Origin: an uncultured virus (IMG/VR IMGVR_UViG_3300033068_001325)
Lineage: Duplodnaviria; Heunggongvirae; Uroviricota; Caudoviricetes
IMG/VR virus record: IMGVR_UViG_3300033068_001325
Direction: 5' to 3' (one strand)
Length of the DNA: 64,000 nucleotides
Under the pieces are notes generated by a model. The model had not been told where the DNA came from. It did no database searches and saw nothing but the letters and a program-made list of their open reading frames with translations. Both the position numbers and the translations under genes were made by a program. This document shows, one piece after another, positions 23,769 through 62,341 of this stretch. Within the stretch, counting starts at the first letter, position 1. Every line of letters starts with the position of its first letter.

Positions 23769-24350
23769 TTAACCGGTGGCGCTGGCCGTACTGTTGGGCC
23801 AGCTAGCGGGGTTGGTCTCGACGTCGACAATGCCGACAGCAAGCGTTCGCGCAGATTCGGTGACGCGAGTCAGCGTGAAATTGACCTGTAAATTCGCCTC
23901 GACAATCCATCGATCCTCATACTGCTTTTCGCCGCTGACGAATTGTGCCTGGCGTGGATCGTCGGCAAACAGCGGCGCGATGTCATCGTAGCTTTCAAAA
24001 AATTCGACCGCGTAGCTGTCACGGAACATGGTCGAGATCCGCGCCGAATTGTTGAAAGACTCTGGCCCGTGAACGTCGAGCTGGATGACGACTTGGGCGG
24101 ACTGCCTTGTCTTCGCCTCGGCACCGAGGGCCTGGAGCTCGTTGAAATTGGTCGACAGACGCGGCATGCGAAGCGGAGTCATCACGACGTAATTGGTCTC
24201 GCTCGGCTCCGATACCCGATTTTCCTGGCCGACGACAACAACGTGCCCGACGAAAGGAGATGCAGTTTGTGGAGGAAGAACGTCCTGCAGAAAAGCCCGA
24301 AGCGCCTCGAATACGTCGTCTTCCGTTGGCTCTTGGATAAACGTCGTCAT
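23769..24350 (-). CDS. Neck / tail terminator protein
   Basis: GQENRV.EP...IQLDVHG...PLFADDP.Q..F..GEKQYEDRW. Confidence 0.78.
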   Translation of the reverse strand: MTTFIQEPTEDDVFEALRAFLQDVLPPQTASPFVGHVVVVGQENRVSEPSETNYVVMTPLRMPRLSTNFNELQALGAEAKTRQSAQVVIQLDVHGPESFNNSARISTMFRDSYAVEFFESYDDIAPLFADDPRQAQFVSGEKQYEDRWIVEANLQVNFTLTRVTESARTLAVGIVDVETNPASWPNSTASATG

Positions 24351-27300: not shown

Positions 27301-27565
27301 CGTCGTACCAGCATCCGGTTACGGCCTGGGGGCCGCAGTTGGCCAGGTTGGCGGTCCAGATATATCCGCCGAAAACGTCGGCGCGGAGAAAGCGAACGCC
27401 CGTCGTCGAGAGATCGGTTCCAACGATCAGACCGCCGCCGCCCGTTTTGAGCGGGATGAATGTATTGGTAACCGGCGGGGATATTACATTGACCGCATGT
27501 TGCGACCATGAACAAAAAAATATTGCTATCGCGCAGAGTAGCGAAGCCCGAAAAAGTTTTTTCAT
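24347..27565 (-). CDS. Signal-peptide-bearing GH74/BNR beta-propeller protein (putative depolymerase or receptor-binding appendage)
   Basis: GGGG...RADVFGGYIW, MAVDPNNP, Asp-boxes SVDAGATY, SSDGGSSF, TTDGGQSW; MKKLFRASLLCAIAIFFCSWS N-terminus; ATGA overlaps. Confidence 0.8.
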   Translation of the reverse strand: MKKLFRASLLCAIAIFFCSWSQHAVNVISPPVTNTFIPLKTGGGGLIVGTDLSTTGVRFLRADVFGGYIWTANLANCGPQAVTGCWYDVINSTTMPAANYGVQPTTGTSQKFQSPSSNGVLEIAGAPSAATVAYMNYGNFVYVSTTIDTTTPSSIRWVKASESGSGWPQSVNDNSNDQPRRLGGRRMAVDPNNPDHVIVGTYGDGIWETKNGRAGAATTWTQISTGSIPLATNGYNIAFDPASGTSVCGSAVCTNKIYIFTNNGAGGLYVSVDAGATYAAAPAGGPTTAQALMVHPTSGVVWIVSGTPSASGTVWTYSGGAAGSWTSKLSGSGNCCHWVAINPANTNHVVVLGNNGAIRSSSDGGSSFTAELAFTRAAGDAPWTALANEAYMTAGAVEFDPLNNDLLIFGGGQAVYSTTFPTSSFVWTSISDGTEGSIGWNIAVPEANKPVIGQQDNGLFAYNTMDNRNLSTVYPGLAARTLTFGSGVANPPNDGGFLVAKISDNFNGTLDWSGYSTDRFATFMPFGTWGSQVPATSISNNGSGVVRVTTPDAASLTTWSAGTGSIVCSISTVTPSSNLIGGGACYTVNKISPTQFDLVGATYSAGMSTTGGSYIMWSPAPTQMSSWGGTLNVIDTANSGGKIRVSYMYRNFGLLANGEPVCFSSVLGTTEANGCWIAESVAGSGASGAVTLGPSSTFSNAYTGGGIGAKWREPGGYIAAASRTNIAMVAGNSSYPICTTDGGQSWTQMTYPSAIPPAQTTVVGGPYSAGTTVIQLASTSGLSAGSVVHIPMDDGRDYVNTLASVSSPNVTLSLAVPTGRSIPNGAALWTATGWGFAAYLATRQVAADYVQPNTFFAVNYPTGLYKWTGCGSPSGTLVQVAATGSWQSNGGFNSKIKTVPGESGHLFYTSGPVGASANNPTLNADHPAASGLWRACNGDSNSAVTWQQVSGFSEPTGFGFGRAKPGNSYPTIYVLGWYNGDYGLWKSTDDANHGNSGASASCTGGNTWTKMPTWPSYSALGFNDIEGDPFVYGQVYGSSGRGVFTGMFNFLLKRDMDPASNDNDPMWLEKAA

Positions 27566-28995
27566 CCCCCGATAAACCTCACACCCGAGCCATGCTGCCT
27601 CTGAGTCGATCCTGCATCCAAATAACTCGTAGCCGATCCAACCGGACCCGGACATCCTGCATTAGCTGCCGGCGAATTAGAGGGAATGGAAAAATCTCCG
27701 CTGCCAGGGTTCCCCAAAAGTGGGTTTGTCGTCAGTTCCGAACTATTGAGCGTAAAATTGACGACGTTGGTCCCCGCAGATGCGTAAAACACATTGCATC
27801 CATGATTTGTCGTCGTGACATCCGATCCCGATGGTAGCGAGACGTTCGCGCCAGAACCATTATTTTGAAAAATGCTGTTCCACAGGCTTGAATTTACTTG
27901 AGCTCCGGCAACTACTTCAAGCCCTACGCTGTTGTTGTAGACGGTGCTACCCGTGATGGTGAACGCGATGGTGGAGGTGCTCGATCCTGATGAGTGATAA
28001 ATCCCTCGCCCCGTGTTGTTCGCGATCGTACTGTTGAGGATGGTAGTGCTGGAGTTGGCGAACGACATTTCCACGCCGTCACCGCCGCAGCCATGCAGGT
28101 AGCTGGCAACAAGTAGAAGGCCACCAAATGTTCCGTTGCGTACGCAATCTCCGCCGACTCCGACAACCTCGCTGTTAAGTATCTGCGCCGTCGCCGCTAG
28201 CTGGATTCCGTCTCCCGTTCCGCCACCGCTAGGGTGATTCACCTTTACATTGCTAATCTGGCTCCAGTTATTGAATGCCGTCATGAGCGCGCCACTCGAT
28301 CCGGATTGGCGCAATTCCAGATTGCTTATGACGTAGTAACTGACGCCGCTCGCATTGATGACATTCACATTGTTCGCACCGACATCGAGAAGGATGCGGG
28401 GGCCGCCCGGTTTTCCGATAATGCGTATCGGCCCGGTGGTCAGGTCTCCGCTTACGATCCCGGTCCAGAAAGCCGCCGTTCGCGCTGCTGGATCGTTGTT
28501 GAATTGGACGGTATCCCCCGGACGAACGGAGCCTAAGATAACGATGGCTCCCGAACCTGACGGGTAGAGATAGCGCCCACCTATTGCCCAACTCGATCCC
28601 GAGCAACTAGAGCACGTCGGCGCAGCGGGGGCTCCGCTTGTGGTGACCGAGCAGGAGCCCGATCCGGTGCAACCGGTTACTCCCGTAATCCAGAAAATTT
28701 TGTTTTGACCGGAGTTGTTCGTCGCATTGTTGAGATAGATTGCTTGATCACCAGCTACCGAGAGTCCTGTGAGATTGGTGTTGGTGTCGAGCGTTATCGT
28801 ATTTGTCCCGGTAGTCCACGCAGCCGCCGCCCCAGAATATGGGGCCGTGTTGGCATCAGTAGTTCCCGAGTTGGTGGCTGACCCTCCGGTGTCGACATAG
28901 ATCGTTCCGGATGCAGCATAGGAAATCTTGGGCGTAAAAACGCACAGCAAGACGAGGGCGGCGATCAGGCGCCGGACCACAAACTTCTTCATCAT
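27562..28995 (-). CDS. Signal-peptide-bearing right-handed beta-helix (pectin-lyase-like) protein
   Basis: IYVDTGGSATNSG; repeats ILNSTIANNTGRGI, ITGSTVYNN; NPLLGNPGSGDFSI..NSPA..AG; MMKKFVVRRLIAALVLLCVFTPKISYA/A. Confidence 0.8.
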   Translation of the reverse strand: MMKKFVVRRLIAALVLLCVFTPKISYAASGTIYVDTGGSATNSGTTDANTAPYSGAAAAWTTGTNTITLDTNTNLTGLSVAGDQAIYLNNATNNSGQNKIFWITGVTGCTGSGSCSVTTSGAPAAPTCSSCSGSSWAIGGRYLYPSGSGAIVILGSVRPGDTVQFNNDPAARTAAFWTGIVSGDLTTGPIRIIGKPGGPRILLDVGANNVNVINASGVSYYVISNLELRQSGSSGALMTAFNNWSQISNVKVNHPSGGGTGDGIQLAATAQILNSEVVGVGGDCVRNGTFGGLLLVASYLHGCGGDGVEMSFANSSTTILNSTIANNTGRGIYHSSGSSTSTIAFTITGSTVYNNSVGLEVVAGAQVNSSLWNSIFQNNGSGANVSLPSGSDVTTTNHGCNVFYASAGTNVVNFTLNSSELTTNPLLGNPGSGDFSIPSNSPAANAGCPGPVGSATSYLDAGSTQRQHGSGVRFIGG

Positions 28996-35239: not shown

Positions 35240-36358
35240 TCAGATGCCGATCATGCTGGCGATGGCAAAAGGCTGGCGAATGACGGCGCCGAGAGTGCCG
35301 CCCACCATCTTCTGCTTGTAGCTCGACATGTCCGGGATCAGGCGGCCGGCGCGCATCTTCAGATTATAGGCGACGTAGCCGGTCTTCTGCTTGCGAACGT
35401 CGGTGCAGATCATCTGCGCGAAGTTGCCGCCGACCACGCCTTGCGGGTTGGTGGCGGACTCCTCGCCGTACTGGACCGCCGAAACGATCTTCAGGTTCGG
35501 CAGGTTCTTCTTGATGAGATCCGACACGTTGACGTCGAAGCTGTTCGTCGCGGTGATCGCGAACTCGGACTGCGGCGACAACGCCAGAACGAAGTTGGAC
35601 TTCAGGTTGATGTTACCACCCGACTGATTGATCAGCTGGATGATCATCGACTGAATGTCGAGATAGATTTCGTTCGGGGTTGCGGTGATGACGTTGTTCG
35701 TCACCCACTTGTTGTTGCCGTAGGCCTTCGGCGAAGGCGTGAGCGCCGCCGTCAGGTTCGGGTCATTCAGAATGCCGTAGTTCTGCAGGCCGGAGATCCC
35801 GAAGAAGTACGACGTGTTCTGATACTGGTTGATGACCCAGGCCGCCGCAGCATTCAGCTCATTCAACCAGTTGATCTTCGCAGCGCCGGCGACATCGAGC
35901 TCACGATCGCCGTACTGGATGATGGTCTGGAAGAGGAACGGCTGTCGGCTCGGGAAGTTGGTGTTCGCATTCACCGAACCGTTGTTGCTGTAGTCGCCAT
36001 AGGCCGACGTCTCGCCCGTGTGCTCGATCGTCGGGAACATGACGCTGTTGAGCGTCCAATCGCCCTTCTGGACTTCATCGAAGATCGACGTCGCCTCGAG
36101 TGGCGAGAAGAGAACTTCGTAGACTTCCGGGTCGATCATGGTCGTGAGCCAAACCGGAATACCGGTGTTGGCTACGGTGGTGATGCCGGGGTTGGCATCC
36201 ATGGCCAGGCGCAGGCCTTCGAGACCGTCGAACGCCATCTCCACGTTCTCGCCCCAGCCGGCAGGGATGTAGGACTGCACGTTGGGGAATGATACGCCCA
36301 TGGAGTGGAAGCGGCGAGCATCGCTCGCAAACTTCGCGCGGGCTTCTTGCAGATTCAT
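35240..36358 (-). CDS. Major capsid protein (DUF2184-like, HK97 fold)
   Basis: KGDW...GETSAYGDYS...YFFGISGLQNYGILNDPNL...GAVIRQPFAIASMIGI. Confidence 0.92.
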   Translation of the reverse strand: MNLQEARAKFASDARRFHSMGVSFPNVQSYIPAGWGENVEMAFDGLEGLRLAMDANPGITTVANTGIPVWLTTMIDPEVYEVLFSPLEATSIFDEVQKGDWTLNSVMFPTIEHTGETSAYGDYSNNGSVNANTNFPSRQPFLFQTIIQYGDRELDVAGAAKINWLNELNAAAAWVINQYQNTSYFFGISGLQNYGILNDPNLTAALTPSPKAYGNNKWVTNNVITATPNEIYLDIQSMIIQLINQSGGNINLKSNFVLALSPQSEFAITATNSFDVNVSDLIKKNLPNLKIVSAVQYGEESATNPQGVVGGNFAQMICTDVRKQKTGYVAYNLKMRAGRLIPDMSSYKQKMVGGTLGAVIRQPFAIASMIGI

Positions 36359-37594: not shown

Positions 37595-39853
37595 TCAGCC
37601 GGCGCGGCGAACACGGGCGGCGTTGGGGAAACGCTTGGTGAAATCGTCCCCACCGTCTTCGGAAGCAGCGTCCTGCGCCAGCTGCTGTTGCTTGCGGCCG
37701 GCGCGCGGCACAAGAGCCCACGCGGTCTTCAGGGCAAAGAGATCCTTGATCTTGGCCGCGCTCTTGTTGCCGACCATCTCAAAGGCCTTCTGATAGACGC
37801 CCTCGGCCGAGTCGAACGCCATGCCGATCTCGCCGACCACGCCCTTGACGTCGGCCTGCGCCTCCTGGATCGCCCGCATGGTGGCCATGGTCTCGCGCTT
37901 GACCTTGTCGCCATGCTTGGCGAGCGCAGCATCCATGCCGAGCTCGTCCTTCTTGCCGTCGGGCCCGTCCTCCTGCTCGACGACATCCTTGTCCTTCGCG
38001 CCGCCGGCAGCCGCCAGCCGCGCCTTCATGTCGTCGGTCGGACCATCTTCGGCGCCGGCCTCGCCCATGCCAGGCATGCCGGCAATGACGTCGTCGGGGA
38101 CGCCCTTTTCCTTCAGGTAAGCGGCGATCGCGGCGAGGCCGCCATCCTCGGCGCCCTCCTCGGCATCCGGGTCCATTTTGCCGGCCGCGGGATCCACGCC
38201 GGCCGCGGGATCGACCTCCTCCCCGATCTCGGCGTCCTTCACGGTCTTGTCGCCCTCGATCGAGGCCATCAGCTTCTGGACGCCATCGACCACGCCGGCC
38301 AGGTCGGCGTCCTGCGCGAGCTTGCCCTTGAGCAGAGCACCGATGCCGGCGCCGATGGTCTTGATCGTGGAAGCGTTGAACTTGCCGGCCTTCACCGCAG
38401 TGAACAGCGGCTTGACGTCCGGAAGCGCGGCGTCCTGCGCAAGCTTCAGCGTTGACAGGTGAGCACGGATAGCGCCGTAGGCAACGCCAGCCTTCAGGCT
38501 CACGATCTTCTTCGACATTGTAGTCTCCTCGGTTGGTTGAAGTGCTTCGTCACCCACGACGACGTCTTCGCCGGCGCGGCCTTTCTTCACGAGGGCAACA
38601 TGATTGCCCACCATGTTTCGCATCACTCCGTCGTAGGGTTCCCCCTCGTACACTCCCGGCGTCATGTCAGCGTCGTAGCTGTAGGCACTGGAGAGCTCTT
38701 TCTGATCGCCGCTTTCGACATGATCGATGCCGTCACGAGACCAGATAGCGAGTGAATTGTAGAGATACGGATGCACATACTCGGCATTGGAGCCGGTGGT
38801 GCCGACCGTGATTTCGCCGTCGTGATCGTCGGCTGTGTGCGGACGATGCTGCGACAGCAGCGGCAGATTGTTGAACGTCTTCGCCGCCTTCTTGATTTCG
38901 TCCGGATGGCGCAGCAACCGGTAAATTCGGTTCGGCTCGAGGCCCAGCTCCCGGGCGCGCGGGATCTCTCGTCCGTAGTACGGGTTCACACACGCCTTGG
39001 TGATTGGCGAGCTCTTCACATGCAGCCGGGCGAAGTTGTCCGTTCGCCGCACCGATTCCGAGCTCTTGTCGAAGGCCAGGGTGACCACCAGGCCATGACG
39101 GCCGATGGTGATCCCCTCGGGCGCCCGATCGAAAGCCAGGGCCGGCTCGAGCTCGGCCGCCTGCCGGGCGATCTCTTCCAAGAGGGCTTCGGCGAACTCG
39201 TCGCTGGCGAGGCTCGGCTTCATGGGCGCGTAGGTTATGGGGCTCACCCCCGACCCGCCGCAGCCAGCGCACCCCCGGCCTCCACAAGCCGAATGAACGC
39301 TATCCTGCGCAAGGTCGCCGTCGGCGCACGCCCAATCGAAAAGCTCCCGGCCGGATGGAACCCGATCAAGGGTCTCCTCGACCGCCGGATGGAGCGGTCG
39401 CGGCAGGTCATCGAGATTGGCCCAAGCGTGATCGCTGTGCTCATGGTTGAGCTTCGGGGTGAACTTCTGGACCGGCCGCACGAAGGTATGGAACGCCATG
39501 TTGTTCGGCGTGCGGACCTGGTGCAGCAGCTTCATGGGGCCGCGGCCGTCATAGCCGGCTTCTTCGATGGTCTCCCGGTGCGCGGCCGCGATCGGCGCTT
39601 CGCCAGGTTCACAGCCTCCGCCCGGAAGGGCCCAATGCCCCACGAAATTGTCGACGCCCTCTTGGCCACCGCGCTTCAGCAGCAGAATCGAGCCGTCGCG
39701 CGCGACATGGATGATTCCGGCGGCGTGCCCGCGCACCGGCTCGGCGTCGCCGGCGAGAAACTTCTCCGCAACATCACGCGGGATCCCGAGCGTCGATCGA
39801 CCCTCCTCTGCCGCCCACATGGCGCGGCGCTGCGCCTCACTCTTGATCGGCAT
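37595..39853 (-). CDS. Nudix hydrolase - prohead protease (DUF2213-like) - scaffold fusion
   Basis: Nudix box GGGCEPGEAPIAAAHRETIEEAG; ITKACVNPYYGREIP...KELSSAY...NHVALVKKGRAG; acidic scaffold tail. Confidence 0.88.
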   Translation of the reverse strand: MPIKSEAQRRAMWAAEEGRSTLGIPRDVAEKFLAGDAEPVRGHAAGIIHVARDGSILLLKRGGQEGVDNFVGHWALPGGGCEPGEAPIAAAHRETIEEAGYDGRGPMKLLHQVRTPNNMAFHTFVRPVQKFTPKLNHEHSDHAWANLDDLPRPLHPAVEETLDRVPSGRELFDWACADGDLAQDSVHSACGGRGCAGCGGSGVSPITYAPMKPSLASDEFAEALLEEIARQAAELEPALAFDRAPEGITIGRHGLVVTLAFDKSSESVRRTDNFARLHVKSSPITKACVNPYYGREIPRARELGLEPNRIYRLLRHPDEIKKAAKTFNNLPLLSQHRPHTADDHDGEITVGTTGSNAEYVHPYLYNSLAIWSRDGIDHVESGDQKELSSAYSYDADMTPGVYEGEPYDGVMRNMVGNHVALVKKGRAGEDVVVGDEALQPTEETTMSKKIVSLKAGVAYGAIRAHLSTLKLAQDAALPDVKPLFTAVKAGKFNASTIKTIGAGIGALLKGKLAQDADLAGVVDGVQKLMASIEGDKTVKDAEIGEEVDPAAGVDPAAGKMDPDAEEGAEDGGLAAIAAYLKEKGVPDDVIAGMPGMGEAGAEDGPTDDMKARLAAAGGAKDKDVVEQEDGPDGKKDELGMDAALAKHGDKVKRETMATMRAIQEAQADVKGVVGEIGMAFDSAEGVYQKAFEMVGNKSAAKIKDLFALKTAWALVPRAGRKQQQLAQDAASEDGGDDFTKRFPNAARVRRAG

Positions 39854-40223
39854 CTTCGATACCTCCGAAGGCGCCCGGCGCATACGGCCAGTCGGGCAGC
39901 TCGACAGTCTGTCCATTCAGCTTGTGCGGGTTGTCACCGCAAAACTGAATTTTCCCGTCGGTGATGAAGTAGTGGCAAAGCGTGCGGCGCTGCCCCGCCG
40001 GCAGTGGCTCACCCTCGTCATCGTGAATGGTGAAGTTGAGCACCGACGGCTTGAAGGTCGGCCGATCGAAATCGCCGTTGAAATCCCATTTCGGCGGGCC
40101 GCCTTCGATCACGACGCCGTGCGGCTCTTCACAGCCAGGGCACCAGTGCATCAGCCGCACAGTTTTGCGGCCGTCCTGCAGTGTGCCGACCGCTCTGCGA
40201 AGCTTCTTGCCAACCGCTCCCAT
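39837..40223 (-). CDS. DUF6527-like zinc-binding protein
   Basis: WCPGCEEPH...WDFNGDFDRPTFKPSVL...CHYFITDGKIQFCGD..H. Confidence 0.78.
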   Translation of the reverse strand: MGAVGKKLRRAVGTLQDGRKTVRLMHWCPGCEEPHGVVIEGGPPKWDFNGDFDRPTFKPSVLNFTIHDDEGEPLPAGQRRTLCHYFITDGKIQFCGDNPHKLNGQTVELPDWPYAPGAFGGIEDADQE

Positions 40224-41944: not shown

Positions 41945-42132
41945 TTCATTTCCCTGATAGCTGCAACGATTCGGTCGCTCGTTTCCTCAAAGGAATCGAT
42001 CACAACTTGGCAGGCCCAAAAGAGACACCCAGCAAACCCACCCACCATCAGCGTACCGGGGCTGCCCCAAATAAAATAGGCGCCGATCAGGGAGAAGGAC
42101 AAGGCAACAAACAAACTCATAAATTTCTTCAT
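41941..42132 (-). CDS. Small two-helix membrane protein
   Basis: Two hydrophobic segments; ATGA overlaps. Confidence 0.55.
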   Translation of the reverse strand: MKKFMSLFVALSFSLIGAYFIWGSPGTLMVGGFAGCLFWACQVVIDSFEETSDRIVAAIREMK

Positions 42133-42683
42133 GAAAACCCCGGCACCACCGTTACCGACCGTTTCCTGTGCAACTTGGCGCGAACCTCCGGAGAAGCCAT
42201 CGCGACTTTAGTGGCTGCACTCACAGCCTGTCGACGCTCTTCAGAATGCTTGCGCCCTCGTAGAGTTGCGGAAGTCTTTGCATTGCTTTCGGGACGGCGC
42301 ACCCGCGCCCGACTGGCAGCGGCAATCTTGGCTATGGCCTCCGGTGTATGTCGGCGTCCATCCATGGGATTTAGATCGCCGCCTAGAGCAGTGTTATAAC
42401 CAAATTGCCAGTCGCATGTTTTGAACGCAGCGATGGCGGAAATCTCTAATTCCTTGATGTAATCAGGTCTGCCACGCACTAGAACGCGCAGCGTACCGCC
42501 ATGCTTGCGGATAGCTCGGCAAATACGTCGATCGTATTTGCGTGAAGCCTTTAGATGGTCGCGCCAGCGATCAGCCGGGTTACGATTTGTGATTCCGAAG
42601 TAGCGCTTTCCGTTCGAAAATTCGATGACATAGAGCGCTGTCAGCTGAAGCCTGGAACTACCGTTATGCTCTGACACCGACAA
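42129..42683 (-). CDS. GIY-YIG homing endonuclease with NUMOD3-like repeats (start uncertain)
   Basis: ALYVIEFSNGKRYFGIT...RW.DH...E...GYN; GRRHTPEAIAKI, GRKHSEERR. Confidence 0.85.
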   Translation of the reverse strand: MSVSEHNGSSRLQLTALYVIEFSNGKRYFGITNRNPADRWRDHLKASRKYDRRICRAIRKHGGTLRVLVRGRPDYIKELEISAIAAFKTCDWQFGYNTALGGDLNPMDGRRHTPEAIAKIAAASRARVRRPESNAKTSATLRGRKHSEERRQAVSAATKVAMASPEVRAKLHRKRSVTVVPGFS

Positions 42684-43480
42684 TTGATAAGCTCCCCAGG
42701 ATAGATATAGCGACGTACTTTGGGATCATTATCATACCACCCTTTGGTCGTATCGTACAGCTTCCCATCGTTGGCAAGGTGCGTCGGCCGCGGCTCTTTC
42801 CCGGCTTTCGAATGACGCCACTTCGACTTCGTCAACCCGAGCTCGAGCTTGCGCGCGCGGTCCATCGCGCCAGTGGCCATGTTGTTCTGAGTGCGGGCGA
42901 TCAGCGCTGCGCGCCTTTTCGTCACCCCGTAGTTTTTCTCCAGTGTGCGCGCGAGGCCGCCAAGATCGCGCCCCGCCTGGATCGACCGCATGACGTCGCC
43001 CTGGACGTTCTTCAGGTACTGCTGCGGAATCGATTTGATGAGCTCGACGTTCTGCTGGAGCGTCGCCTTCATGACGTCGCGCATGGCCGGCGTCATCGTG
43101 AATTTCACCGTCCAGTTTGCCTCGCGCAGGATCCGCGCCAACTGCGCGTCATTGCGCTGCGCGACTTCGAACATGAAGTGCTTGGCGATTTTCTTCGCCG
43201 CCTTGTCCCACAGCTTCTGCCACCGGTCGGTGAGCTCTTTGATGGTGCGCGTGAGCTCGTTGGCCGGCAGGACGTCGTCCATGGCGAGCGGCTCGTTGTT
43301 CTTGTACCGCGCCTCGATCCAATAGCTGACCGATCGGTCCATGCGCTCAATCAGTCGATCGAGCTTGGCGCGATAGGCAGCTTCAACACCGGCGCTCGGC
43401 GCATTCGGTTCAAGGTCAATCCATTTGGCGACACGGCGGTTGCCAGTCGTCTCAATCGCTCGGAAGGCGGTTGCTGGCAT
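42641..43480 (-). CDS. Minor head morphogenesis protein (MuF / SPP1 gp7-like)
   Basis: NVELIKSIPQQY...RAALIARTQ...WRHS....PRPTH...PGELINCRC. Confidence 0.9.
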   Translation of the reverse strand: MPATAFRAIETTGNRRVAKWIDLEPNAPSAGVEAAYRAKLDRLIERMDRSVSYWIEARYKNNEPLAMDDVLPANELTRTIKELTDRWQKLWDKAAKKIAKHFMFEVAQRNDAQLARILREANWTVKFTMTPAMRDVMKATLQQNVELIKSIPQQYLKNVQGDVMRSIQAGRDLGGLARTLEKNYGVTKRRAALIARTQNNMATGAMDRARKLELGLTKSKWRHSKAGKEPRPTHLANDGKLYDTTKGWYDNDPKVRRYIYPGELINCRCQSITVVPGFS

Positions 43481-43548
43481 GGGTGAGCCTGTCGATCGAG
43501 GGCGGGCGCCGGCGCGTGCTGCGCGAACCTCGCCCAAGGATCACGCGA

Positions 43549-44345: not shown

Positions 44346-47300
44346 TCACAGCTCCCTCAGCGTGATGTGGTTGCCTTCGACCTTCTCCACGTAGAAGCGT
44401 GTGCCGGACTTGAAGAGCACTTCCGCTTCGTTGTGATAGTTCGAAATTTTCTGCACGTCGCGGCCGCTCTTACCATGAACCGTGTACTGATGGCTACCCG
44501 ACCATACGTTCTTGTTTTTGCTGGTGGAAGTGAAGCCGCGCTCCTCGACCACCATGCCCTCCTTGTAGAGAGCGAACTGCTCAGCCGTGAGCGATGCCTT
44601 GCGATAGGTCGTGCCCTGGTATGCCGGCATCTTGTCGAGACCGGCATTGATCGACTTCATGAGCTTGTACTGCGCCACCGTCATTACGCCCTTGCGCAGC
44701 TGGTCGTTGACGCCGCGATAGTGCGAACCGGTATAGGCGATCACGCCCACCGCCTCTTCCGGCGTGAGATAGTTGGTGAGGCCGGCAGTCTGCAGCTTTG
44801 CCTTTGCGTTCTTGATGTAGCTGCCCGAAGCCTTGTGACCACCGAACAGCGCTTCCATCGCCTCATAGTGGTCTTTCATTTCGGGGTTCTTCGCGAACTG
44901 CTCCTCGAGCGCCTTCTTCTCGGCCTCCATCTTCTGCTGCTGCTCCCAGGCAGCCTTCTCCTGCTCCGCTTTCAGCAGCTCTGCCTTTTGCTTTTTCTCG
45001 ACCTTCACAAGCTCCGTCATGTCGACGCCAAGCTGCTTGAAGTCGGCGACCTTCTCGTTGAGTTGGTCGTTCGTTAGGCCTTCTTTGCCTTCCCATTTCT
45101 TGTTGAAGGCATCGAGCAGATCGTTGGCCTGTTTCTTCATGGTTTCCGTTTCCGGCTTATCGCCGGGCACGTACTGCATCTTCAGCGCAACGCCCTTCTT
45201 CGCCTTCTCCTTGTCAGCCGGCGAGGCCTCGGGAGCCTTTGGCTTCGGTTTCTCGAGCGACACGCCCTTTTCAGCCAAAAGCTTTTTCACTTTATCATGC
45301 GCCGAAGCATTGAACTGCTGCGCAAAATCAGGATGGTCCGCGATCAAGCTTTTCAGCTTCTCTGGATTGTCCTTCGCACCAGCGTCAGCAAAGGCACCGA
45401 GCCATTCTGCATAAGTTGATGGCTTCTGACCGGCGGGAGGAGCATTAGGAATTTTCGGTGAGGCAGGCTGCTTCTTGTTGAGCTCCTCCGCCTTCTTCAG
45501 CGTTTCACCAAGCGGCGTGCCCACGATTGCAGATGGGGGCTCGGGGATCGCTCCGGTCTCTGCGGCCTTCTTCGTCACCGCATCCTGCTTGGAAGCCTTC
45601 TTCGCGGCCTGCTCTTTCTTGAAGGCCTCGAGCTCCTCGGCCGTCATCTTGGTGCCGAAATACTTGCCGTCCTTCTTCTCCAGCTTCATGCCGAGAGCGG
45701 CTGCCTGCGCCGGCATCGAGACCGACGGCCAGCCCATTTCGGTCATGAGCTCTTTCGGCGTGGTCCCCTTTTCGAGGAGCCAGCCGATGTGCTCCTTTTT
45801 GGACTTGAAGACCGGCTTGTCGCCTTTATCGGCTTCGGCTTCTTCGCCTTCCTCGCCACCGCCACTCTCCCCTGCGCCCTTTGGCGCGAATTTGCCGTCC
45901 TTCTTGCGAGGGTGCTTGCCCTCGTCGAACGTGGCTTCGTCGAACGCGAACACGTCGGGCGCTACTTCGGTCGGATCGCCATCGAATGACAGGTCTTCGG
46001 TCTCGCCAGGCTCTTCGGCGTTCTCGAGGCGCGCGGTGTAGCCGTTGCCAATGACATCGGTCTCCATATCGGATTCCGAGAGGTTGGCGCCGATCGCGTC
46101 CATGGCCGCGCCCATCATGGCTTCGTCTTCGGCCTGGAGCTGGAAGCGCTTCGCCAGATCCTGCTTGCGAGCAATGAGGATGTCGGCCAGCTCCTTGTCT
46201 CCGCCGACGGCCTGCCGGATCTTGGCGTCCGGGATCGCGGTGACGCGCGCGACGGATTCCTTCAGCTCCTCCGGGCTCATCTTCCCGTACAGCCGCGCGG
46301 CATCGGGCGACATGCTCGGATTGCGCATGCTGTCGATCTCGGAAACCTTGGGCCCGAATGCGCTGCCCTTCGGTCCGCCCTGCGCGCGGTAGCGCAAGCT
46401 GCCCCCGACATCGAGCGTCACCGGCTCGCCGGCGCGGATGCCCTGGTTGTCACCGCCGGTGCCGGCCGCATCCCAATTGGATAGCCACGCATGCACACCG
46501 AAGTCGCGCGCTGCCGCCTTGCGCTCCTCCGCCGTCATGGAGCTGATGCGATTCTTGTCGAGCTGCTCCCATGCCGTCACGACATGGTCGGGGCCGGCCT
46601 CACGATAGTCGAGCGTGTTGACGCCGGCGAGCTGGTACAGGCGGGCCGCCGCTTTCTCGTTCGCGACATGCTCTTTCGTTTTCGGCTTCTTGACGTAGAA
46701 CTTCGCGCCGGCGTCATCGGTATAGACACCACCCTCATTGGTGCCGAGCTTGCCGCCGGTCTTCTTCAACTTCGACACATCCAGCTTCTTCGAAGCTTCG
46801 GTCGTGCTCGAGCTGCCACTTTCGGATGCCGGATTCTTCGATCCACCGCCCGTTGATCCAAATTCTCCGTTCTCGGCGCGCGGATGATCGGCTTCGTTCC
46901 ATTCGTCGCTCGCTCCCTGGTCAAATCCGCCGTCGGCTTCGCCGCCGTCACTGCCTCCGCCTTCGCGCCCCCCGAATGGATCGTCCCCACCCTCGGGGTC
47001 AGGCTCGGGCGCCTCGGGGACGTCGGCCGGGTCGATGTCGTGGTACTCCGAGTCGGCGTCGTTGGCCACCCGCGTGCGCGCTTCGGCGTTGGTGATAATG
47101 CCCTTGTCGATGAGCATTCCGTCGGTCTCCGCTTCGATCTTGCGGATTTCGGCGAGCTCCTTGTCGGTCATCGACCACAGCGGCACGAAGGTAAAGGTGA
47201 TTTCGTCGTCAACCTCACCCCATAGCGACCGCATGATGAAGTGGATCACGGTCTGCAAGTGATCGCGGAAGAACTGCTCCTGGAACGCGGCGATGGTGTC

Positions 47301-48866
47301 ATAGAAAGCGCGGATTTCACCTTCGCTCGATGCGTTGAGGCCGGTCGGCGTGATGCCCAGCAGGATGATCAGCGGAATGCCGCTGACTGCCGACATCTGC
47401 TCTTGCGACTGCGCCTGCAGCTTGTCGAGGCTGCCAAGCGGCGTCGACACGTTGAAAAACTCTTCCGTGTCCTTGTCGAGCACGAATGAGCCGGCATTTG
47501 TGCGCATCGTATTGAATAGCTCGATGCGCTTGATCGCCTCCACCCCGCCGATTTCGAGATCGGCAGCCATGTTGGTGTAGACGCCGCTGACCGAGAACGA
47601 TTCGACCAAATCGCACACCGCTTGCCGCGTGCGCAGCCAGTTGTCGACATACGGCTTGGCCATCTGCGACATGGAAAGGCCGCCGAACGCATAGGCCGGC
47701 TTCAGAATGTCGGGGACTTCACGGCCGACGAAGCGCAGCAGGCGCGAACGGTGCACGGTGATGCCGTTCACATACCAGTGCTCGGGATTGTACCAATCGG
47801 CCTTCAGCGGATTGAGCGAGTTGTAGTTGGCCGGATAGCACCACATCGGCTCAACAGGGCGCACAGCTTTCAGCTTGCGCTTCTTGTTGACCTTCACCTT
47901 GGAAACGGTGCCGCGACCATTGCCGATCGGCGTCTGCAGCTCCTCGCCTTCGACTCCGAGATCGACAAACAGGTGATACCGGCCAAACCAGCCGTCACCC
48001 TCGGCGATGGTGTAGAAGGCGTCCTTCACGCGAAGGCGCCGCATTTCGTCTTCCAGCTCCTTGATGCGCTTGGCCTTGTCGAGCGACCGCTTCCTCTTCA
48101 CGGAATCGCGCACGCGCTGCTTGGTGTCGTCGAGCTCCGCCTCCGCTTCGTCGAGCTCCGCTTCCGCCGGGTCAGCCGGCACACCAGGCGCGCCGCCGCC
48201 ATCATTCACACCAGGCTTCGGCTCTGGACCCGGCGCCTCGTAGTCCTCATCGGGCGAATTGACGGTGTGGAACTGGATCCACTTGCGCGTCATCTCCGTC
48301 GCAATGCGTTCGGAGATCCGCCGATACTCGGCCCGCTGGGTGAGGGCGGCCAGGTACGAATACCCCAGAAAGCCGATTCCCTCGGCGAACGACACGTTGA
48401 GAGCGTCGCCCGCCCATGCCCCGACTTGGCCTATCTGGCCGGCCACCAGGCCATCGGGGCTGTAGTCCTGCCCCAAACCAGCGTCCTGCGCGAGCTTGCG
48501 GGCCGTTACCCCCTTGGGAAGCACCCCCTTTGGCGGTTCCCATGGAGCCAGGTACGAACCGGACGCCAGGGCTGCCTCAGCCAGCGGATTTCGCTTCCGC
48601 CGCATGCCCCGGGCGGCCTCGATCAGCTTTTCCATGTGCTGGCGGCGCTCGGCCGGGGTGGCGACCGCCCCTGCAGGCGGTGCAGGAGCCGCTGGCGTGG
48701 CCGCCGGTGCGGTTTTGGCGACTTCCGGCACCTTGGGCGCTACCGGCGAGCGGGCAGCCCTGTTGGCCTCCCTGCGCGTGCTGGCCCGCCCCGCGCCCAC
48801 GATCGCGCGCGTGAGGCCCGCGGCAATCGCCGCCTGCCGATCGGCCCGGGTGCGCCGCACCGTCAC
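44346..48866 (-). CDS. Portal protein (DUF1073-like) fused to kinase-like and ADP-ribosyltransferase domains
   Basis: Follows TerL; FLGYSYLAAL.QRAEYR, HRSRLL, LLGITPTGLNASSEGE, FTFVPLW; then GTNEGGVY...FYVK...NE...WLSNWD...DN...LDVGG; then YR...GFTSTS...EAEVLF. Confidence 0.9.
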   Translation of the reverse strand: MTVRRTRADRQAAIAAGLTRAIVGAGRASTRREANRAARSPVAPKVPEVAKTAPAATPAAPAPPAGAVATPAERRQHMEKLIEAARGMRRKRNPLAEAALASGSYLAPWEPPKGVLPKGVTARKLAQDAGLGQDYSPDGLVAGQIGQVGAWAGDALNVSFAEGIGFLGYSYLAALTQRAEYRRISERIATEMTRKWIQFHTVNSPDEDYEAPGPEPKPGVNDGGGAPGVPADPAEAELDEAEAELDDTKQRVRDSVKRKRSLDKAKRIKELEDEMRRLRVKDAFYTIAEGDGWFGRYHLFVDLGVEGEELQTPIGNGRGTVSKVKVNKKRKLKAVRPVEPMWCYPANYNSLNPLKADWYNPEHWYVNGITVHRSRLLRFVGREVPDILKPAYAFGGLSMSQMAKPYVDNWLRTRQAVCDLVESFSVSGVYTNMAADLEIGGVEAIKRIELFNTMRTNAGSFVLDKDTEEFFNVSTPLGSLDKLQAQSQEQMSAVSGIPLIILLGITPTGLNASSEGEIRAFYDTIAAFQEQFFRDHLQTVIHFIMRSLWGEVDDEITFTFVPLWSMTDKELAEIRKIEAETDGMLIDKGIITNAEARTRVANDADSEYHDIDPADVPEAPEPDPEGGDDPFGGREGGGSDGGEADGGFDQGASDEWNEADHPRAENGEFGSTGGGSKNPASESGSSSTTEASKKLDVSKLKKTGGKLGTNEGGVYTDDAGAKFYVKKPKTKEHVANEKAAARLYQLAGVNTLDYREAGPDHVVTAWEQLDKNRISSMTAEERKAAARDFGVHAWLSNWDAAGTGGDNQGIRAGEPVTLDVGGSLRYRAQGGPKGSAFGPKVSEIDSMRNPSMSPDAARLYGKMSPEELKESVARVTAIPDAKIRQAVGGDKELADILIARKQDLAKRFQLQAEDEAMMGAAMDAIGANLSESDMETDVIGNGYTARLENAEEPGETEDLSFDGDPTEVAPDVFAFDEATFDEGKHPRKKDGKFAPKGAGESGGGEEGEEAEADKGDKPVFKSKKEHIGWLLEKGTTPKELMTEMGWPSVSMPAQAAALGMKLEKKDGKYFGTKMTAEELEAFKKEQAAKKASKQDAVTKKAAETGAIPEPPSAIVGTPLGETLKKAEELNKKQPASPKIPNAPPAGQKPSTYAEWLGAFADAGAKDNPEKLKSLIADHPDFAQQFNASAHDKVKKLLAEKGVSLEKPKPKAPEASPADKEKAKKGVALKMQYVPGDKPETETMKKQANDLLDAFNKKWEGKEGLTNDQLNEKVADFKQLGVDMTELVKVEKKQKAELLKAEQEKAAWEQQQKMEAEKKALEEQFAKNPEMKDHYEAMEALFGGHKASGSYIKNAKAKLQTAGLTNYLTPEEAVGVIAYTGSHYRGVNDQLRKGVMTVAQYKLMKSINAGLDKMPAYQGTTYRKASLTAEQFALYKEGMVVEERGFTSTSKNKNVWSGSHQYTVHGKSGRDVQKISNYHNEAEVLFKSGTRFYVEKVEGNHITLREL

Positions 48867-50518
48867 CGGCGCCTCTTCATCTGGCGAGCACGGTCAAGCG
48901 TGCTGTCGGCAATCTTCATGGGGCCTCGCTCTGTTCGAGCAAACAACATCATCACGGCGTCGGCCAGGTTCGGCGACTTCGTGCCAGGCGGTTTCTTGTC
49001 TACCAGCATTTTGCCGGTCGGCGACTGTCCATAGCGGGGCTGCGAAAGCTCGCCGACCAGGCGCGTGCAGTACGGCAGCTCGGCCGGAATGCAAATGATC
49101 TCGTCAGGATCGCACGGCTTGTTCTCGCGCACCCAAAGATACGTGGCTCGAAAGCGCCGGCGCAGCGACCACCATCCCTGCGCCTTCATGTTCTTGAAGT
49201 AGTCTTCGTTCTTTCGACCCTTGACGTCTTCGGCTTCGGGCAGCACCACCGCGCCGCTGCCGCGGAAAGCGATCGTTGAAATCTGCCCGATGTGTTCGGC
49301 CTTGCGCGCCTCGTTGAGCACTCGCGCATCGCCGCGCACGCCGGCGCCCAAGCCATCAGCGTCATACTTGAAAGCGTTGAGGCCGTGCTTGTCGCAAAGC
49401 TCAAATACCTTCGTCACGGAATCGAAGATGTCGCCACCTTCACCAGTCCATTCCGCCAACGACGTCAGCACGACGCCGTGCGCGGTGACGAAAGCGTTCT
49501 TGTCCTTCCCCTCGTCGGCGACGTCCATCGCGCCGCGCTTCTCGCCGGTCGGCCGAATAGCGAGCTTCTTGTGAGCGTCGATCGCCGCGCGCACCCACTC
49601 GGCCGGAATGATAACGCCCTCGATCGAGGCCGAATAGTTGATGTCGATTTCCTGCGCGACGACTACGGGGTCGTCGATGTCTTCGACTTGCTTTTCGTAC
49701 CAGGCTTCATCTTTGCGCGGGTCGTCGCGCCAATGCAGCGTGAAGACTTCGATCTTCCCACTATGCCGGCGGTGCGCAAATGAGTTGGCCAAGCCATGCG
49801 GCGTCGAAATGTCGATGCGGCAGTTGGTCGTCTGTGAAAGGGCAAAGTCGACCGCTTTCGGGTTCTGCAAGTACGAGCTCTCGTCAACGAAATAGATCGC
49901 CTTGCGGTCACCGCGTCCGATGTTGTCTCCGGACTGCCCCGTCATTGTAGAGCCATTCGGGAACAGTATGCGCATGTGCGGCGCATACCGGTTCGGATCC
50001 CACGCGCCTTTGAATTCGCGCGGCAGCTCCTGCATGAAGACGCGGGCTTTCCAGAACAGCGACTTCGGGTCACCGATCTTGTCGACGTAGTCCTCCGTCA
50101 CGGAGCCGTAGCCAATGTTCATGCCGGGATAGAACAGGCAGAGCGTGCAGCCCATCGCTACGGCCAGCCAGGAGAGCCCACCATCTCGAGACTTGTCCGC
50201 CAGGCCAGGCCTGCGTTCACGCCATTTGCGGAAGATGAATTGACAGAATTCGACCTGCTTTGGGAACAGGACAAACGGCATCATGGATTCTTCGCCGACG
50301 TCGAGCTTGCGCGGGTCGACGGTGACGCCCCAATCGCCGATGAAATCCCACGGGTTCTCGCGATAGTAGTCGCGCAGCGCTGCGAGATATACCTCGCGCT
50401 CCGCCTCGGGCATGCTGCGGATGGCGCGCAGCCGCTCCGCTCGCTGCCTCCAGATCAGCTCGTAGCCAGGCGCCGGGTTCTTCCAGTCGAACGCCGGCAG
50501 CGCGCCGCTACGCGCCAT
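48863..50518 (-). CDS. terL: Terminase large subunit
   Basis: DKSRDGGLSW Walker A, YFVDES Walker B, ISTPHG, MDVADEG, SPNLADA. Confidence 0.93.
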   Translation of the reverse strand: MARSGALPAFDWKNPAPGYELIWRQRAERLRAIRSMPEAEREVYLAALRDYYRENPWDFIGDWGVTVDPRKLDVGEESMMPFVLFPKQVEFCQFIFRKWRERRPGLADKSRDGGLSWLAVAMGCTLCLFYPGMNIGYGSVTEDYVDKIGDPKSLFWKARVFMQELPREFKGAWDPNRYAPHMRILFPNGSTMTGQSGDNIGRGDRKAIYFVDESSYLQNPKAVDFALSQTTNCRIDISTPHGLANSFAHRRHSGKIEVFTLHWRDDPRKDEAWYEKQVEDIDDPVVVAQEIDINYSASIEGVIIPAEWVRAAIDAHKKLAIRPTGEKRGAMDVADEGKDKNAFVTAHGVVLTSLAEWTGEGGDIFDSVTKVFELCDKHGLNAFKYDADGLGAGVRGDARVLNEARKAEHIGQISTIAFRGSGAVVLPEAEDVKGRKNEDYFKNMKAQGWWSLRRRFRATYLWVRENKPCDPDEIICIPAELPYCTRLVGELSQPRYGQSPTGKMLVDKKPPGTKSPNLADAVMMLFARTERGPMKIADSTLDRARQMKRRR

Positions 50519-54673: not shown

Positions 54674-55954
54674 CTAAGCCGCTTTCTTCTTCGCGCGCTC
54701 GCGCGCAACCTGGTCGAACGATTTGCCGGTGGCCTGCAAGGTCGCCGGCATTTTCGTGAACTTCTGCCATCGACGCACGGCCAGATCGACGAAGACCGGA
54801 TTGAGCTCGAGCGCCAGGCACCGGCGCCCCGTCATCTCGGCCGCAATCATCGTGGTGCCGCTGCCGCAGTAGGGTTCGAAGACGCTATCGCCCGGTGCGC
54901 TGAAGAGCTTCAGGATTCGCTGCATGAGCGCCACGGGCTTCGCCCACGGCACCGGCCGCTCCCAATGCCCCGTCGAAAACAACTTGCTGTACTCGGCCAT
55001 TTCCAGCCCCTTCTGCGGGGCAAGCTTTCCGATTGCGACGATGTAGTCGAGATCCGGAATTAGGTGGTTGTTGTTCGCCGGCAGCGCCGCTTGTCGGTGC
55101 AGCACATACAGATCCCAAGACTCCTTCGTCGAGCGCGCCAGATCAAGATAGTCCGGCAGCAGTTCGCGCGACGTGAAGATGATGTTGGTCTCGCGCAGCT
55201 CGCACAGTTTCGACACTTCGAACTTATCGACGCCGGCGGCAATGATCTTCTTCGCCTGATTGGTCGACGGCTTGCGATAAAGGCCACCGCCGTTGCGGTC
55301 GTGCTCGTACTTGTACGGCGGGTCGGTCGCCATAAGCTTCGGGTCGTCGTCGCCGAGCAGCTTTTCTACCGTCTTCCCGTTCAACGAGTCGCCGCACATC
55401 AGGCGGTGGTCGCCCAGCAGCCAGATGTCGCCGCGCGCGCTCACCACGCGCTCTTCTTCGAGCTCGCCCTCGTCGTCAGGGTTTGCGCCGGCAGCACCGG
55501 GGTTGCCGCCAATAAACGTAGCGAGGCGCACCTTGTCGAAGCCAGTCAGGTTCAACGGATAGTTGACCTTCGCAAGCTCTGTGAGACCGACACGAAGAAG
55601 CTTGTTGTCGAAGCCAGTCATTGCCGGCAGCGCATTGTCACTGATGACGATTGCCCACTTCTCAGCCGCCGTCAGTCCCTTGCGCACGATCGTTGGAATT
55701 TTTGCGCCGATTTTGACGCATACCAAACGACGCCCATGCCCTTTCAGCACAACGTCATTTTCATCAACGAGAGCCGGCTGGTCAAAACCATGGGCCCGGA
55801 TGTTTTCTTCGATGGCGTTGAGCTGTGCCTGTGTGTGGATCTTGGGATTGTTCGGGAAAGGCTTCAGCTCGTTGGGGTCGCGCAGCACGATTTCGGTCGC
55901 GACAAATTTCAACTTTTCGATCGGAATAGCAGCTTGAGCTTTTTTCTTCCTCAT
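54674..55954 (-). CDS. ParB-N fused N6/N4 DNA methyltransferase
   Basis: NNPKIH...GHGR; GDIWLLGDHRLMCGDS; TDPPY; KPVAL; EPYCGSGTT. Confidence 0.9.
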   Translation of the reverse strand: MRKKKAQAAIPIEKLKFVATEIVLRDPNELKPFPNNPKIHTQAQLNAIEENIRAHGFDQPALVDENDVVLKGHGRRLVCVKIGAKIPTIVRKGLTAAEKWAIVISDNALPAMTGFDNKLLRVGLTELAKVNYPLNLTGFDKVRLATFIGGNPGAAGANPDDEGELEEERVVSARGDIWLLGDHRLMCGDSLNGKTVEKLLGDDDPKLMATDPPYKYEHDRNGGGLYRKPSTNQAKKIIAAGVDKFEVSKLCELRETNIIFTSRELLPDYLDLARSTKESWDLYVLHRQAALPANNNHLIPDLDYIVAIGKLAPQKGLEMAEYSKLFSTGHWERPVPWAKPVALMQRILKLFSAPGDSVFEPYCGSGTTMIAAEMTGRRCLALELNPVFVDLAVRRWQKFTKMPATLQATGKSFDQVARERAKKKAA

Positions 55955-61747: not shown

Positions 61748-62341
61748 TCAGGACTTCCTATCGAACTTCGTTTTTTCGCGCCCCCATGTCGACCAACCTT
61801 CACGCGACTGACGCGCGAAGATGTCGGCGCGTCGCCAACCAGGAGTCAGCCGCTCGAGCTCGGCATAAAATTCATCCGGCTTGCGTGAATTTTCGCGCGC
61901 AAGACCCGGCAACTCTGCCTCACCGAAGGTCTCGATCAGGTTCTTCATATCCCGACCACGAAAGCCATGTCCCCTGCGCGCAGTAATGAGATACGGCTCG
62001 CAGACGGTGCGAACAATATGCCCGGGGCCCCATCGTAGCTTGCCGTTGACGCTGCGCTTTGACCATGCTCCGCCGGTTTTTACTTCAAGGCCGAACACAT
62101 CCTGAATAATGCGCGCCTGCTTTGCGATCAGCGGCCATGTAACCCAGAAGAAGACAACACCGCGCGGCGATAGCAGATCCTCCGGCCGCGTTTGTTCTAT
62201 TTCCTGGAGCGTCATGGTGTCGTATTGCGGCGTCTTCTTCCGACCGCTGTCGGCCCACGTCTCCCACGGCCACGGGTAGTCGATCATCACCAGATCGAAG
62301 GCACCAATAGGAAGCGGCCGGAAGAACGAATGCTCAATCAC
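61748..62341 (-). CDS. MT-A70 family adenine methyltransferase
   Basis: DLVMIDYPW...YDTMTL.EI...FFWVT...NSRKPDEFY...DIFARQSREGWSTWG. Confidence 0.88.
   Translation of the reverse strand: MIEHSFFRPLPIGAFDLVMIDYPWPWETWADSGRKKTPQYDTMTLQEIEQTRPEDLLSPRGVVFFWVTWPLIAKQARIIQDVFGLEVKTGGAWSKRSVNGKLRWGPGHIVRTVCEPYLITARRGHGFRGRDMKNLIETFGEAELPGLARENSRKPDEFYAELERLTPGWRRADIFARQSREGWSTWGREKTKFDRKS

Follow-up and report, generated by a model that had tools for sequence, protein, structure and literature searches.

Phage-type polyvalent proteins, as set out in passages of Iyer, Burroughs, Anand, de Souza, and Aravind 2017 (PMC5512222), were multi-enzyme proteins that were encoded among late/virion genes and were proposed to be packaged and injected. 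Passages on phage T4 (PMC9958956) described a capsid targeting sequence (CTS) of about 10 residues, conserved in IPII and IPIII, that directed proteins to the scaffolding core, and passages on phage SPN3US (PMC10052503) described a protease, gp245, for which a P3–P1 motif with an acidic end marked propeptide cuts in portal, capsid, and ejection proteins, the sites coming from mass spectrometry. The locus compared here with these systems was found in a 64,000-nucleotide stretch of DNA (the window) from an uncultured Caudoviricetes virus (IMG/VR record IMGVR_UViG_3300033068_001325), whose minus strand carried a portal-cargo polyprotein gene (44346..48866; 1506-aa protein P0001; open reading frame [ORF] list, translation, and Pfam) with two copies of a short peptide, the HPR tag (consensus [WF]xExxHPRxxxGxF). 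P0001 had two effector-type domains (a CtkA-like kinase fold and ADPrib_exo_Tox) fused to a portal, its gene lay between the terminase large subunit gene (TerL) and MuF, and it clearly belongs with the phage-type polyvalent effectors that are fused to a portal. It and most of the proteins matching a profile of the tag fitted that class, as its passages in PMC5512222 describe it, by portal/MuF fusion and by cargo of ADP-ribosyltransferase (ART), kinase, NUDIX-like, zeta-toxin, InPase, PBECR, and ddrB-ParB domains. They differed in two respects: (i) the passages of PMC5512222 on processing proposed a zincin-like metallopeptidase, while no such domain was found in P0001 and processing by a DUF2213 protease is presumed here; and (ii) the passages of PMC5512222 on motifs, linkers, and cleavage named no recurrent header peptide. 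On sequence evidence, the HPR tag is such a peptide, a discrete header of cargo modules in the head genes of many phage lineages.

The HPR tag and its conservation

Translated in all six frames, the 64-kb window displayed only two HPR...G.F strings, namely tag 1 (WNEADHPRAENGEF, residues 656–669; 46860..46901) and tag 2 (FDEGKHPRKKDGKF, residues 980–993; 45888..45929), both within P0001 and, like all P0001 features given below, on the minus strand. Each was preceded by a candidate protease site (↓, presumed cut): (i) GASD↓E, 1 residue ahead of the aromatic of tag 1 (residues 651–655; 46902..46916; D654 and W656 at least 90% conserved in relatives); and (ii) FAFD↓E, 3 residues ahead of that of tag 2 (residues 973–977; 45936..45950; consensus VFAFDE in relatives). 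The sequence-only reading of this DNA, which had described two HPR motifs each heading a cargo module (a kinase-like domain and an ART-containing part), was correct in its coordinates and its domain calls.

The core pattern of the tag at the DNA level had 2 matches in the window against 0.14 expected, and 2 matches were reached in 1 of 100 shuffles. E658, H661, G667, and F669 were invariant in 22 of 22 portal-fusion relatives; in a 601-residue segment aligned over 55 more diverse portal fusions, 23 columns were at least 90% conserved, six of them being tag residues, and the tag residues were as conserved as the portal core. A chance origin of the tags was ruled out by the six-frame uniqueness, the shuffles, and this invariance in relatives. 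Compared to each other, tags 1 and 2 of the window shared 34 of 60 bases and used different synonymous codons, which ruled out a DNA-level recombination cassette; as far as such comparisons can tell, the tag is conserved at the protein level, with selection acting on the peptide.

In the AlphaFold2 model, residues 1–36, corresponding to residues 655–690 of the protein (tag 1 plus spacer), had a predicted local distance difference test score (pLDDT) below 50, and the tag and its spacer were therefore predicted to be disordered, as expected for a linear motif. The sequence logo was acidic across the tag and its flanks and Gly-rich at +9 to +15. Binding of DNA, one of the roles offered for the motif by the sequence-only reading, is unlikely because the peptide is acidic.

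That reading had known of no function assigned to the motif, and none emerged here either: the tag was covered by no Pfam family and no NCBIfam model, a PDB profile search with the tag gave 0 matches at E up to 10, and no description of it was found in open-access papers and preprints. A word look-up in the accessible text of Jamet et al. 2017 (PMC5576092) gave nothing on motif, linker, or cleavage, and passages of a phi24B preprint had no bearing on the tag.

Swappable cargo and head-gene context

A 31-position profile built from 23 tags of the clade was searched against 1.84 billion representative proteins and matched 3529 protein clusters at E ≤ 1e-3, 311 at 1e-10, and 5 at 1e-30. Each of the best 150 among the 3529 matches harbored 2–18 tag copies. 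When a looser pattern was applied to 149 top matches, 438 tags were found at a median spacing of 260 residues, with an aromatic residue at −5 in 94% and Glu at −3 in 96% of them, neither feature being imposed by the search pattern. The first tag lay no more than 60 residues from the N-terminus in 56 of these 149 proteins, and the last lay no more than 100 residues from the C-terminus in 3 of them. Among the 56 proteins with Pfam matches, 1 of 169 tags fell inside a Pfam stretch versus 38.4 expected, and the LPD families now in Pfam covered no tag. The giant protein P0223 (7334 aa; encoded on a 409,570-bp contig) displayed 15–18 tags; it presumably strings many cargo modules together, and its phage would be very large.

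The domains preceded by the tag were diverse: ART, histidine phosphatase, GNAT, NUDIX, topoisomerase IB, ART-PolyVal, zeta-toxin kinase, SET, Acb1, InPase, PBECR, and ddrB-ParB. The same unit of tag plus kinase was found at different places, namely behind the portal in the window and in loci L005, L009, and L049, and in front of the protease in locus L025, within a NUDIX–tag–kinase–protease–scaffold protein. Loci were also collected through the portal: 24 of the 80 contained tags, and 33 of their 34 matches lay on the portal strand with the aromatic–Glu context, the remaining match being on the other strand and chance-like. In these loci the tag headed ART, histidine phosphatase, GNAT, NUDIX, topoisomerase IB, and ART-PolyVal domains, and it was further present in N-terminal extensions of DUF2213 proteases and in separate genes between MuF/portal and the protease gene. 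Three distant examples came from cultured sources: in Pseudomonas phage Orisa03, the portal was followed by DFDENKHPRSDDGKF and an ART-like end; in Gordonia phage Sixama, gp73, whose gene comes right after that of the portal, had the tag at the protein start; and a Helicobacter prophage supplied the third.

Two side observations were made on tagged genes of the "stand-alone" kind. First, in L082 (12849-14034/14033-15803), L031 (14806-15991/15881-17828), and L055 (11419-12532/12535-14755), such tagged cargo ORFs abutted the protease ORF or overlapped its start in a different frame, so that they may be coupled to the protease in translation or fused to it by a frameshift. Second, stand-alone tagged proteins (P0245, P0281, L147, L223, and L249) displayed, a few residues ahead of the tag, a leader with alternating His (e.g., HVHVHI or HIHLH).

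The module headed by tag 1 (residues 693–911; 46134..46790) displayed a CtkA-like atypical protein-kinase fold that belonged to no Pfam family. Its AlphaFold2 model had a mean pLDDT of 80, and the best structural match was the Helicobacter pylori kinase CtkA (chain 3akk_D; VIA Z 14.2; 199 residues aligned; root-mean-square deviation 3.9 Å), followed by HipA (11.3), PI4KII-alpha (11.2), and Rio1 (10.8). K72, E83, D145, N153, and D165 were invariant in 74 kinase-domain sequences and, going by residue order, would be the kinase Lys and Glu, the catalytic-loop Asp and Asn, and the metal-binding Asp. Residues 640–1000 had no Pfam match at E up to 10, and a PDB sequence search with the kinase profile returned insignificant uS15m matches only. 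Membership of Kinase-PolyVal (PF18762) was considered and rejected: no Pfam match was found, and hhalign against a Kinase-PolyVal-bearing protein aligned the tag only. The family of the kinase-like domain was large, comprised bacterial proteins of about 230 aa (P0025–P0144), many of them fused to a CDKN3/dual-specificity phosphatase, and had no Pfam entry; the fusions suggest that kinase and phosphatase work as a pair in cells. A total of 115 of 120 cellular-type homologues of the kinase domain (171–545 aa) contained no tag and started directly with the domain, and the possibility that the tag was part of the kinase domain was thereby ruled out. The placement of the tags, the swappable cargo, and these tagless kinase homologues together bear out the idea, put forward by the sequence-only reading, of a real modular element heading cargo modules.

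Pfam was run on 74 of the 149 top matches (every second one by rank, leaving out the 7334-aa protein) and recognized 14 Phage_portal_3, 3 Portal_Mu, 1 lambda-type portal, 5 MuF (two of them below the gathering score), 1 Peptidase_S78, and 1 DUF2213 domain. By protein, 25 of the 74 harbored a head-assembly domain, 31 had cargo-type domains only, and 18 had none; no conjugation or secretion-system domain was found by Pfam in any of them.

Viral contigs were also scanned independently of any protein family, and a degenerate DNA pattern matched at least 126 stretches; 70 distinct contigs were examined, and 69 of them had the tag in an ORF. Among the matches listed, a portal, protease, or MuF domain was found by Pfam in 31 of 68 tagged viral ORFs, and 59 of 69 viral loci had a head-assembly domain in the tagged ORF or an adjoining head-and-packaging gene, which is a raw count (neighbors called with PHROGs on 128 flanking ORFs; 4 of the 59 loci rested on weak matches). 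The DNA pattern was also applied to one genome per bacterial species: it gave 76 matches, 55 of them with the aromatic; about 50 were real-looking and about 20 chance-like, the latter being close to the number expected from the information content of the pattern. Hidden Markov models of this head family matched within 3 kb of 16 of the 50 bacterial tag loci versus 0 of the 20 chance-like loci. A strong enrichment of the motif in head-module proteins, on which the sequence-only reading had made its idea depend, was thus found among both the viral and the bacterial loci.

The prophage hosts belonged to about 15 phyla, as judged from record titles and general taxonomy with four assignments checked: Actinomycetota, Bacillota, Pseudomonadota, Bacteroidota, Planctomycetota, Verrucomicrobiota, Gemmatimonadota, Armatimonadota, Abditibacteriota, Acidobacteriota, Chloroflexota, Nitrospirota, Elusimicrobiota, Patescibacteria, and others. 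When 50,697 phage records were searched by tblastn with 31 aa around the tag, 11 weak matches only were obtained, the search being too insensitive. As a side observation, L207 (a Peptococcaceae genome bin; minus strand, near position 322) had TGA at the conserved Trp of the tag, where its close relative L279 had TGG; a nonsense mutation, recoding, or an error in the sequence could each account for the difference.

Candidate cut sites, proposed mechanism, and alternatives

The presumed cutter was a 773-aa protein encoded on the minus strand at 37595..39916, composed of NUDIX (residues 64–182), LASD↓EF, a DUF2213 head-protease domain (residues 297–457), and a scaffold, with LASD↓E and three LAQD↓A sites. 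H82, S134, and H164 of the DUF2213 domain were invariant in the protease alignment, and their His-Ser-His spacing is, in our view, reminiscent of Ser/His head proteases. The N-terminus of the protein was MPIKSEAQRRAMWAAEEG, a string that we believe recurs in other phage proteins. No peptidase family was found in P0001 itself by Pfam (whole protein at E up to 1, fragments at E up to 10), and the literature listing contained no cleavage study of DUF2213 proteases.

With the junction pattern [LVIMFGA]A.D[AE], which was defined after inspecting these very sequences, 12 A-x-D sites were counted in the portal fusion (5), the protease-scaffold protein (5), and the capsid protein (2) versus about 2 expected, while none was present in MuF, the minor head protein, and four neck/tail-side ORFs, and one each was present in TerL and a 1102-aa ORF at 24347-27655. 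In the capsid protein, LAMD↓A(Q)P stood some 50 residues from the N-terminus, at the start of the PHROG capsid match (LAMD↓A at residues 51–55; 36194..36208, minus strand), and this site was kept in 31 distinct homologues including that of the Helicobacter prophage; a literature search on N-terminal strings of capsid proteins gave nothing relevant. The scaffold regions of 23 relatives, 26–36% identical to that of the window and belonging to related rather than independent phages, contained 84 sites versus 11.1 expected (2–6 each). Relatives also kept LA(M/Q)D at the portal N-terminus and an A-x-D site with an invariant Asp in MuF (LAMD↓D). Because A-x-D was shared by the capsid leader, the portal N-terminus, MuF, and the scaffold and was conserved there, it probably marks where the DUF2213 head protease of this phage cuts. 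GASD↓E and FAFD↓E, which the sequence-only reading had put down as putative cleavage sites, fit the same candidate motif.

Around the tags themselves, the Asp lay 1–3 residues before the aromatic in 21 of 23 clade tags, with Ala two residues before that Asp in 16; the candidate sites lay before the tags, and no A-x-D site was found between tag and module. The pre-tag residues repeated within a phage and differed between lineages: (i) ATAALA↓F with lambda-type portals; (ii) TFAAD↓W with a Mu-type portal; (iii) RKD↓W with SPP1-type portals; and (iv) (V/I)ADAE↓W. Such constancy per phage, together with lineage specificity, is as expected if each phage's own protease cuts before a common tag, and it resembles in style the measured systems of T4 and SPN3US. 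The anatomy of a modular header placed after a protease site is very probable.

A mechanism can be proposed on this anatomy. The portal fusion would carry two enzyme modules, a CtkA-like kinase and an arginine-type ADP-ribosyltransferase, into every prohead in twelve copies each. Inside the prohead the DUF2213 serine protease would cut after A-x-D, the same signal serving to trim the capsid-protein leader, the portal N-terminus, and MuF and to chop the scaffold. The freed modules would start 1–3 residues before the tag, followed by the disordered Gly/Ser spacer, and the released units, the kinase (655 to about 923 or 976) and the ART (977–1506), would be free in the capsid. The tag, placed at the new N-terminus, would then serve each cargo unit as a short linear address. 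A conserved head partner would read it, holding the freed enzyme and aligning it so that it leaves with the DNA through the portal, its N-terminus leading. Ejection is suggested because ART, kinase, topoisomerase IB, Acb1, and enzymes like them have their targets in the cytoplasm; that cleavage takes place, where the new N-terminus lies, and that a reader exists and what it is are what we infer. Both modules being covalently tied to the portal, the tag would not be needed for entry into the head, and since the tag was conserved although the cargo was portal-tethered, it would have to act at or after release. The interpretation given by the sequence-only reading holds in part: a modular header in head proteins stands, while plain capsid targeting is redundant here because the modules are joined to the portal. 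We favor the address and ejection mechanism tentatively, rating it slightly short of an even chance.

Several points weigh against this mechanism, among them the after-the-fact definition of the junction pattern and the relatedness of the phages compared (see above). The NUDIX module on the window's own protease carried no tag, so that the tag is not obligatory for cargo (as a side observation, relatives with a NUDIX–tag–X arrangement were L025, L081, and L082). Ten of the 69 viral loci among the matches listed had no head context. The literature gave no measured cleavage, packaging, or ejection of tagged proteins. No partner that reads the tag came to light; when its complex with the DUF2213 protease domain, the capsid protein, and MuF together was predicted, the uncontrolled score was 0.00, which speaks neither for nor against binding. 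The tag core was near-identical across at least three portal families (Phage_portal_3, Portal_Mu, and lambda-type), several protease types, and about 15 phyla, and this uniformity is hard to square with a fast-evolving phage receptor and better fits a universal reader (a host protein or the ribosome) or an intrinsic property. A broader form of the proposal, in which the tag would be a near-universal signal of tailed phages for injected proteins, exposed by a protease and read at the portal/DNA-exit path or in the cell, so that any enzyme bearing it would stay in the capsid until delivery with the DNA, is possible but not probable.

Among the rival explanations, a role confined to cleavage comes first: the tag would be a prime-side docking element orienting the head protease to module junctions, with no later role. 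The tag abutted a candidate cut site in every lineage examined and was kept in tethered cargo, which needs release and not targeting, and a separate cut for each module would explain one tag per module. However, the same protease would cut tagless LAQD↓A and LAMD↓A in the scaffold, capsid protein, portal, and MuF; the Asp-to-aromatic distance varied over 1–3 residues, which is odd for an active-site cleft; the tag His fell in the first 20 residues of 13 of 149 proteins, where a cut would remove almost nothing; and proteases of several families would all have to make use of one identical tag. Docking alone is accordingly unlikely.

Alternatively, the tag might be read in the infected cell, either by a universal host component (e.g., a refolding chaperone) or by ClpS/ClpAP as an N-end-rule timer limiting the life of the injected enzymes. 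The near-identity of the tag core over prophages of about 15 phyla and over head lineages, the repeated junction motif that ended directly at the aromatic in several lineages, and the disordered spacer after the tag all speak for such a reader; in the N-end rule, Trp and Phe at the N-terminus are signals, and a spacer is needed. Against a timer, the cut presumed in the window's clade would leave Glu or Ala, not an aromatic, at the N-terminus; positions 2 and 3 after the aromatic were acidic (Asp/Asn, and Glu in 96%), and acidic residues there weaken ClpS binding; and H, P, R, G, and F were conserved far beyond the needs of a degron. A common localization signal is in turn unlikely for enzymes whose targets are unrelated, and reading in the cell as a whole is quite unlikely. 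Very unlikely is a tag without any reader, i.e., a junction cassette spreading with shuffled modules or a ribosome-pausing nascent-chain element for separate folding: tagged modules did move among portal, protease, and separate genes, and the ribosome as universal reader would fit the wide host range, but the DNA identity to drive recombination was missing (the base and codon differences between the two tags given above), conservation equal to that of the portal core indicates selection on the peptide, and tags at the very protein start had no upstream domain to protect.

Gene architecture, neighboring genes, and comparison with known systems

The remaining parts of P0001 were arranged as follows. 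The portal N-terminal extension contained the candidate protease site LAQD↓A (residues 125–129; 48480..48494), with a LAMD consensus conserved in 22 relatives. The portal domain (47121..48359) belonged to Phage_portal_3 (HI1409 family), the match covering residues 170–582 (2e-73; 247.6 bits versus a gathering score of 33.8), and was also called as phrog_146, with TIGR01555 below its cut-off; TerL lay upstream. It was followed by an acidic Gly/Pro/Asp/Glu linker (residues 612–650; 46917..47033), and tag 1 was followed by a Gly/Ser-rich spacer (residues 670–690; 46797..46859). The kinase-like module was followed by another candidate protease site, AAMD↓A (residues 920–924; 46095..46109; consensus AALDA in relatives). 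The region from tag 2 to the ART (residues 1005–1340; 44847..45854) was composed of a small conserved segment and then a Lys/Ala/Pro/Glu-rich, coiled-coil-like stretch; Pfam gave weak matches only in it, and an Atlas search of residues 1000–1345 was empty. The ART domain (44376..44789) contained R (YRG at 1383), STS (1447), and ExE (EAE at 1480), which we take to be the catalytic motifs of the R-S-E class, and matched Pfam ADPrib_exo_Tox (PF03496) at residues 1360–1497 (40.9 bits versus a cut-off of 23.4).

The phage was about 76 kb in size, the longest contig with P0001 being 76,205 bp, and the window contained contractile-tail genes (sheath, baseplate, and tape measure), indicating a myovirus. 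The head module on the minus strand had the order TerL (48863..50518, directly upstream of the portal gene), portal gene, small ORFs, MuF (SPP1 gp7-type head morphogenesis protein; 42641..43537), GIY-YIG homing endonuclease, NUDIX-DUF2213 protease-scaffold, minor head protein, and major capsid protein (35240..36358). The GIY-YIG/NUMOD3 homing endonuclease ORF (42129-42683, minus strand) overlapped the 3′ end of MuF (42641-43537, minus strand); the two shared the terminal peptide TVVPGFS in different codons, and the MuF family consensus ended in ..GFS. This arrangement suggests that a homing endonuclease gene went into the extreme 3′ end of MuF, bringing a recoded copy of the last codons. Elsewhere in the window (54674-55954 and 61748-62341, minus strand), a ParB-like domain was fused to a DNA methyltransferase, and a second methyltransferase adjoined the primase/helicase gene.

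The HPR tag is probably an undescribed label on capsid-carried, injected phage proteins. How tailed phages other than T4 select non-structural head cargo is largely unknown, and here one peptide headed kinases, ART, topoisomerases, NUDIX, the anti-CBASS protein Acb1, and many unknown modules. It offers (i) a means of listing, by sequence, the candidate injected effectors of metagenomes; (ii) concrete mutational targets (H, P, R, G, and F) for packaging, release, and delivery; (iii) a candidate tool for loading proteins into capsids; and (iv) with A-x-D, a first testable cleavage rule for the large, uncharacterized DUF2213 head-protease family. If the tag were a near-universal signal, sequence would suffice to tell which proteins uncultured phages inject, and about 30 added residues could load foreign proteins into capsids.

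Encapsulin cargo-loading peptides and the N-terminal marker motifs of secreted polymorphic effectors, such as the MIX of type VI effectors, are short conserved peptides that, with a flexible linker, mark unrelated enzymes as cargo of an HK97-fold shell or an injection machine and allow cargo to be recognized by sequence. Encapsulin peptides mostly stand at the C-terminus and bind a known pocket of the shell. The HPR tag shared with them a likeness of logic only, with no sequence resemblance. The protease of SPN3US has Glu at P1. The A-x-D pattern behaved, in sequence, like the SPN3US motif described in the passages cited above, which report several sites per propeptide, while the sites here are candidates with Asp at P1 and a DUF2213 protease, and those passages described no HPR-type header. 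Resembling what is proposed for the tag, the T4 CTS was a short N-terminal peptide on head-bound non-structural proteins and was coupled to processing by the prohead protease gp21; according to passages of PMC9958956, the CTS was transferable to foreign proteins. Unlike the CTS, the HPR tag was found on tethered cargo, in up to 18 copies per protein, and across many phage lineages and host phyla. The CTS is cut off by the prohead protease, whereas the HPR tag lies downstream of the presumed cut and would stay on the mature cargo.

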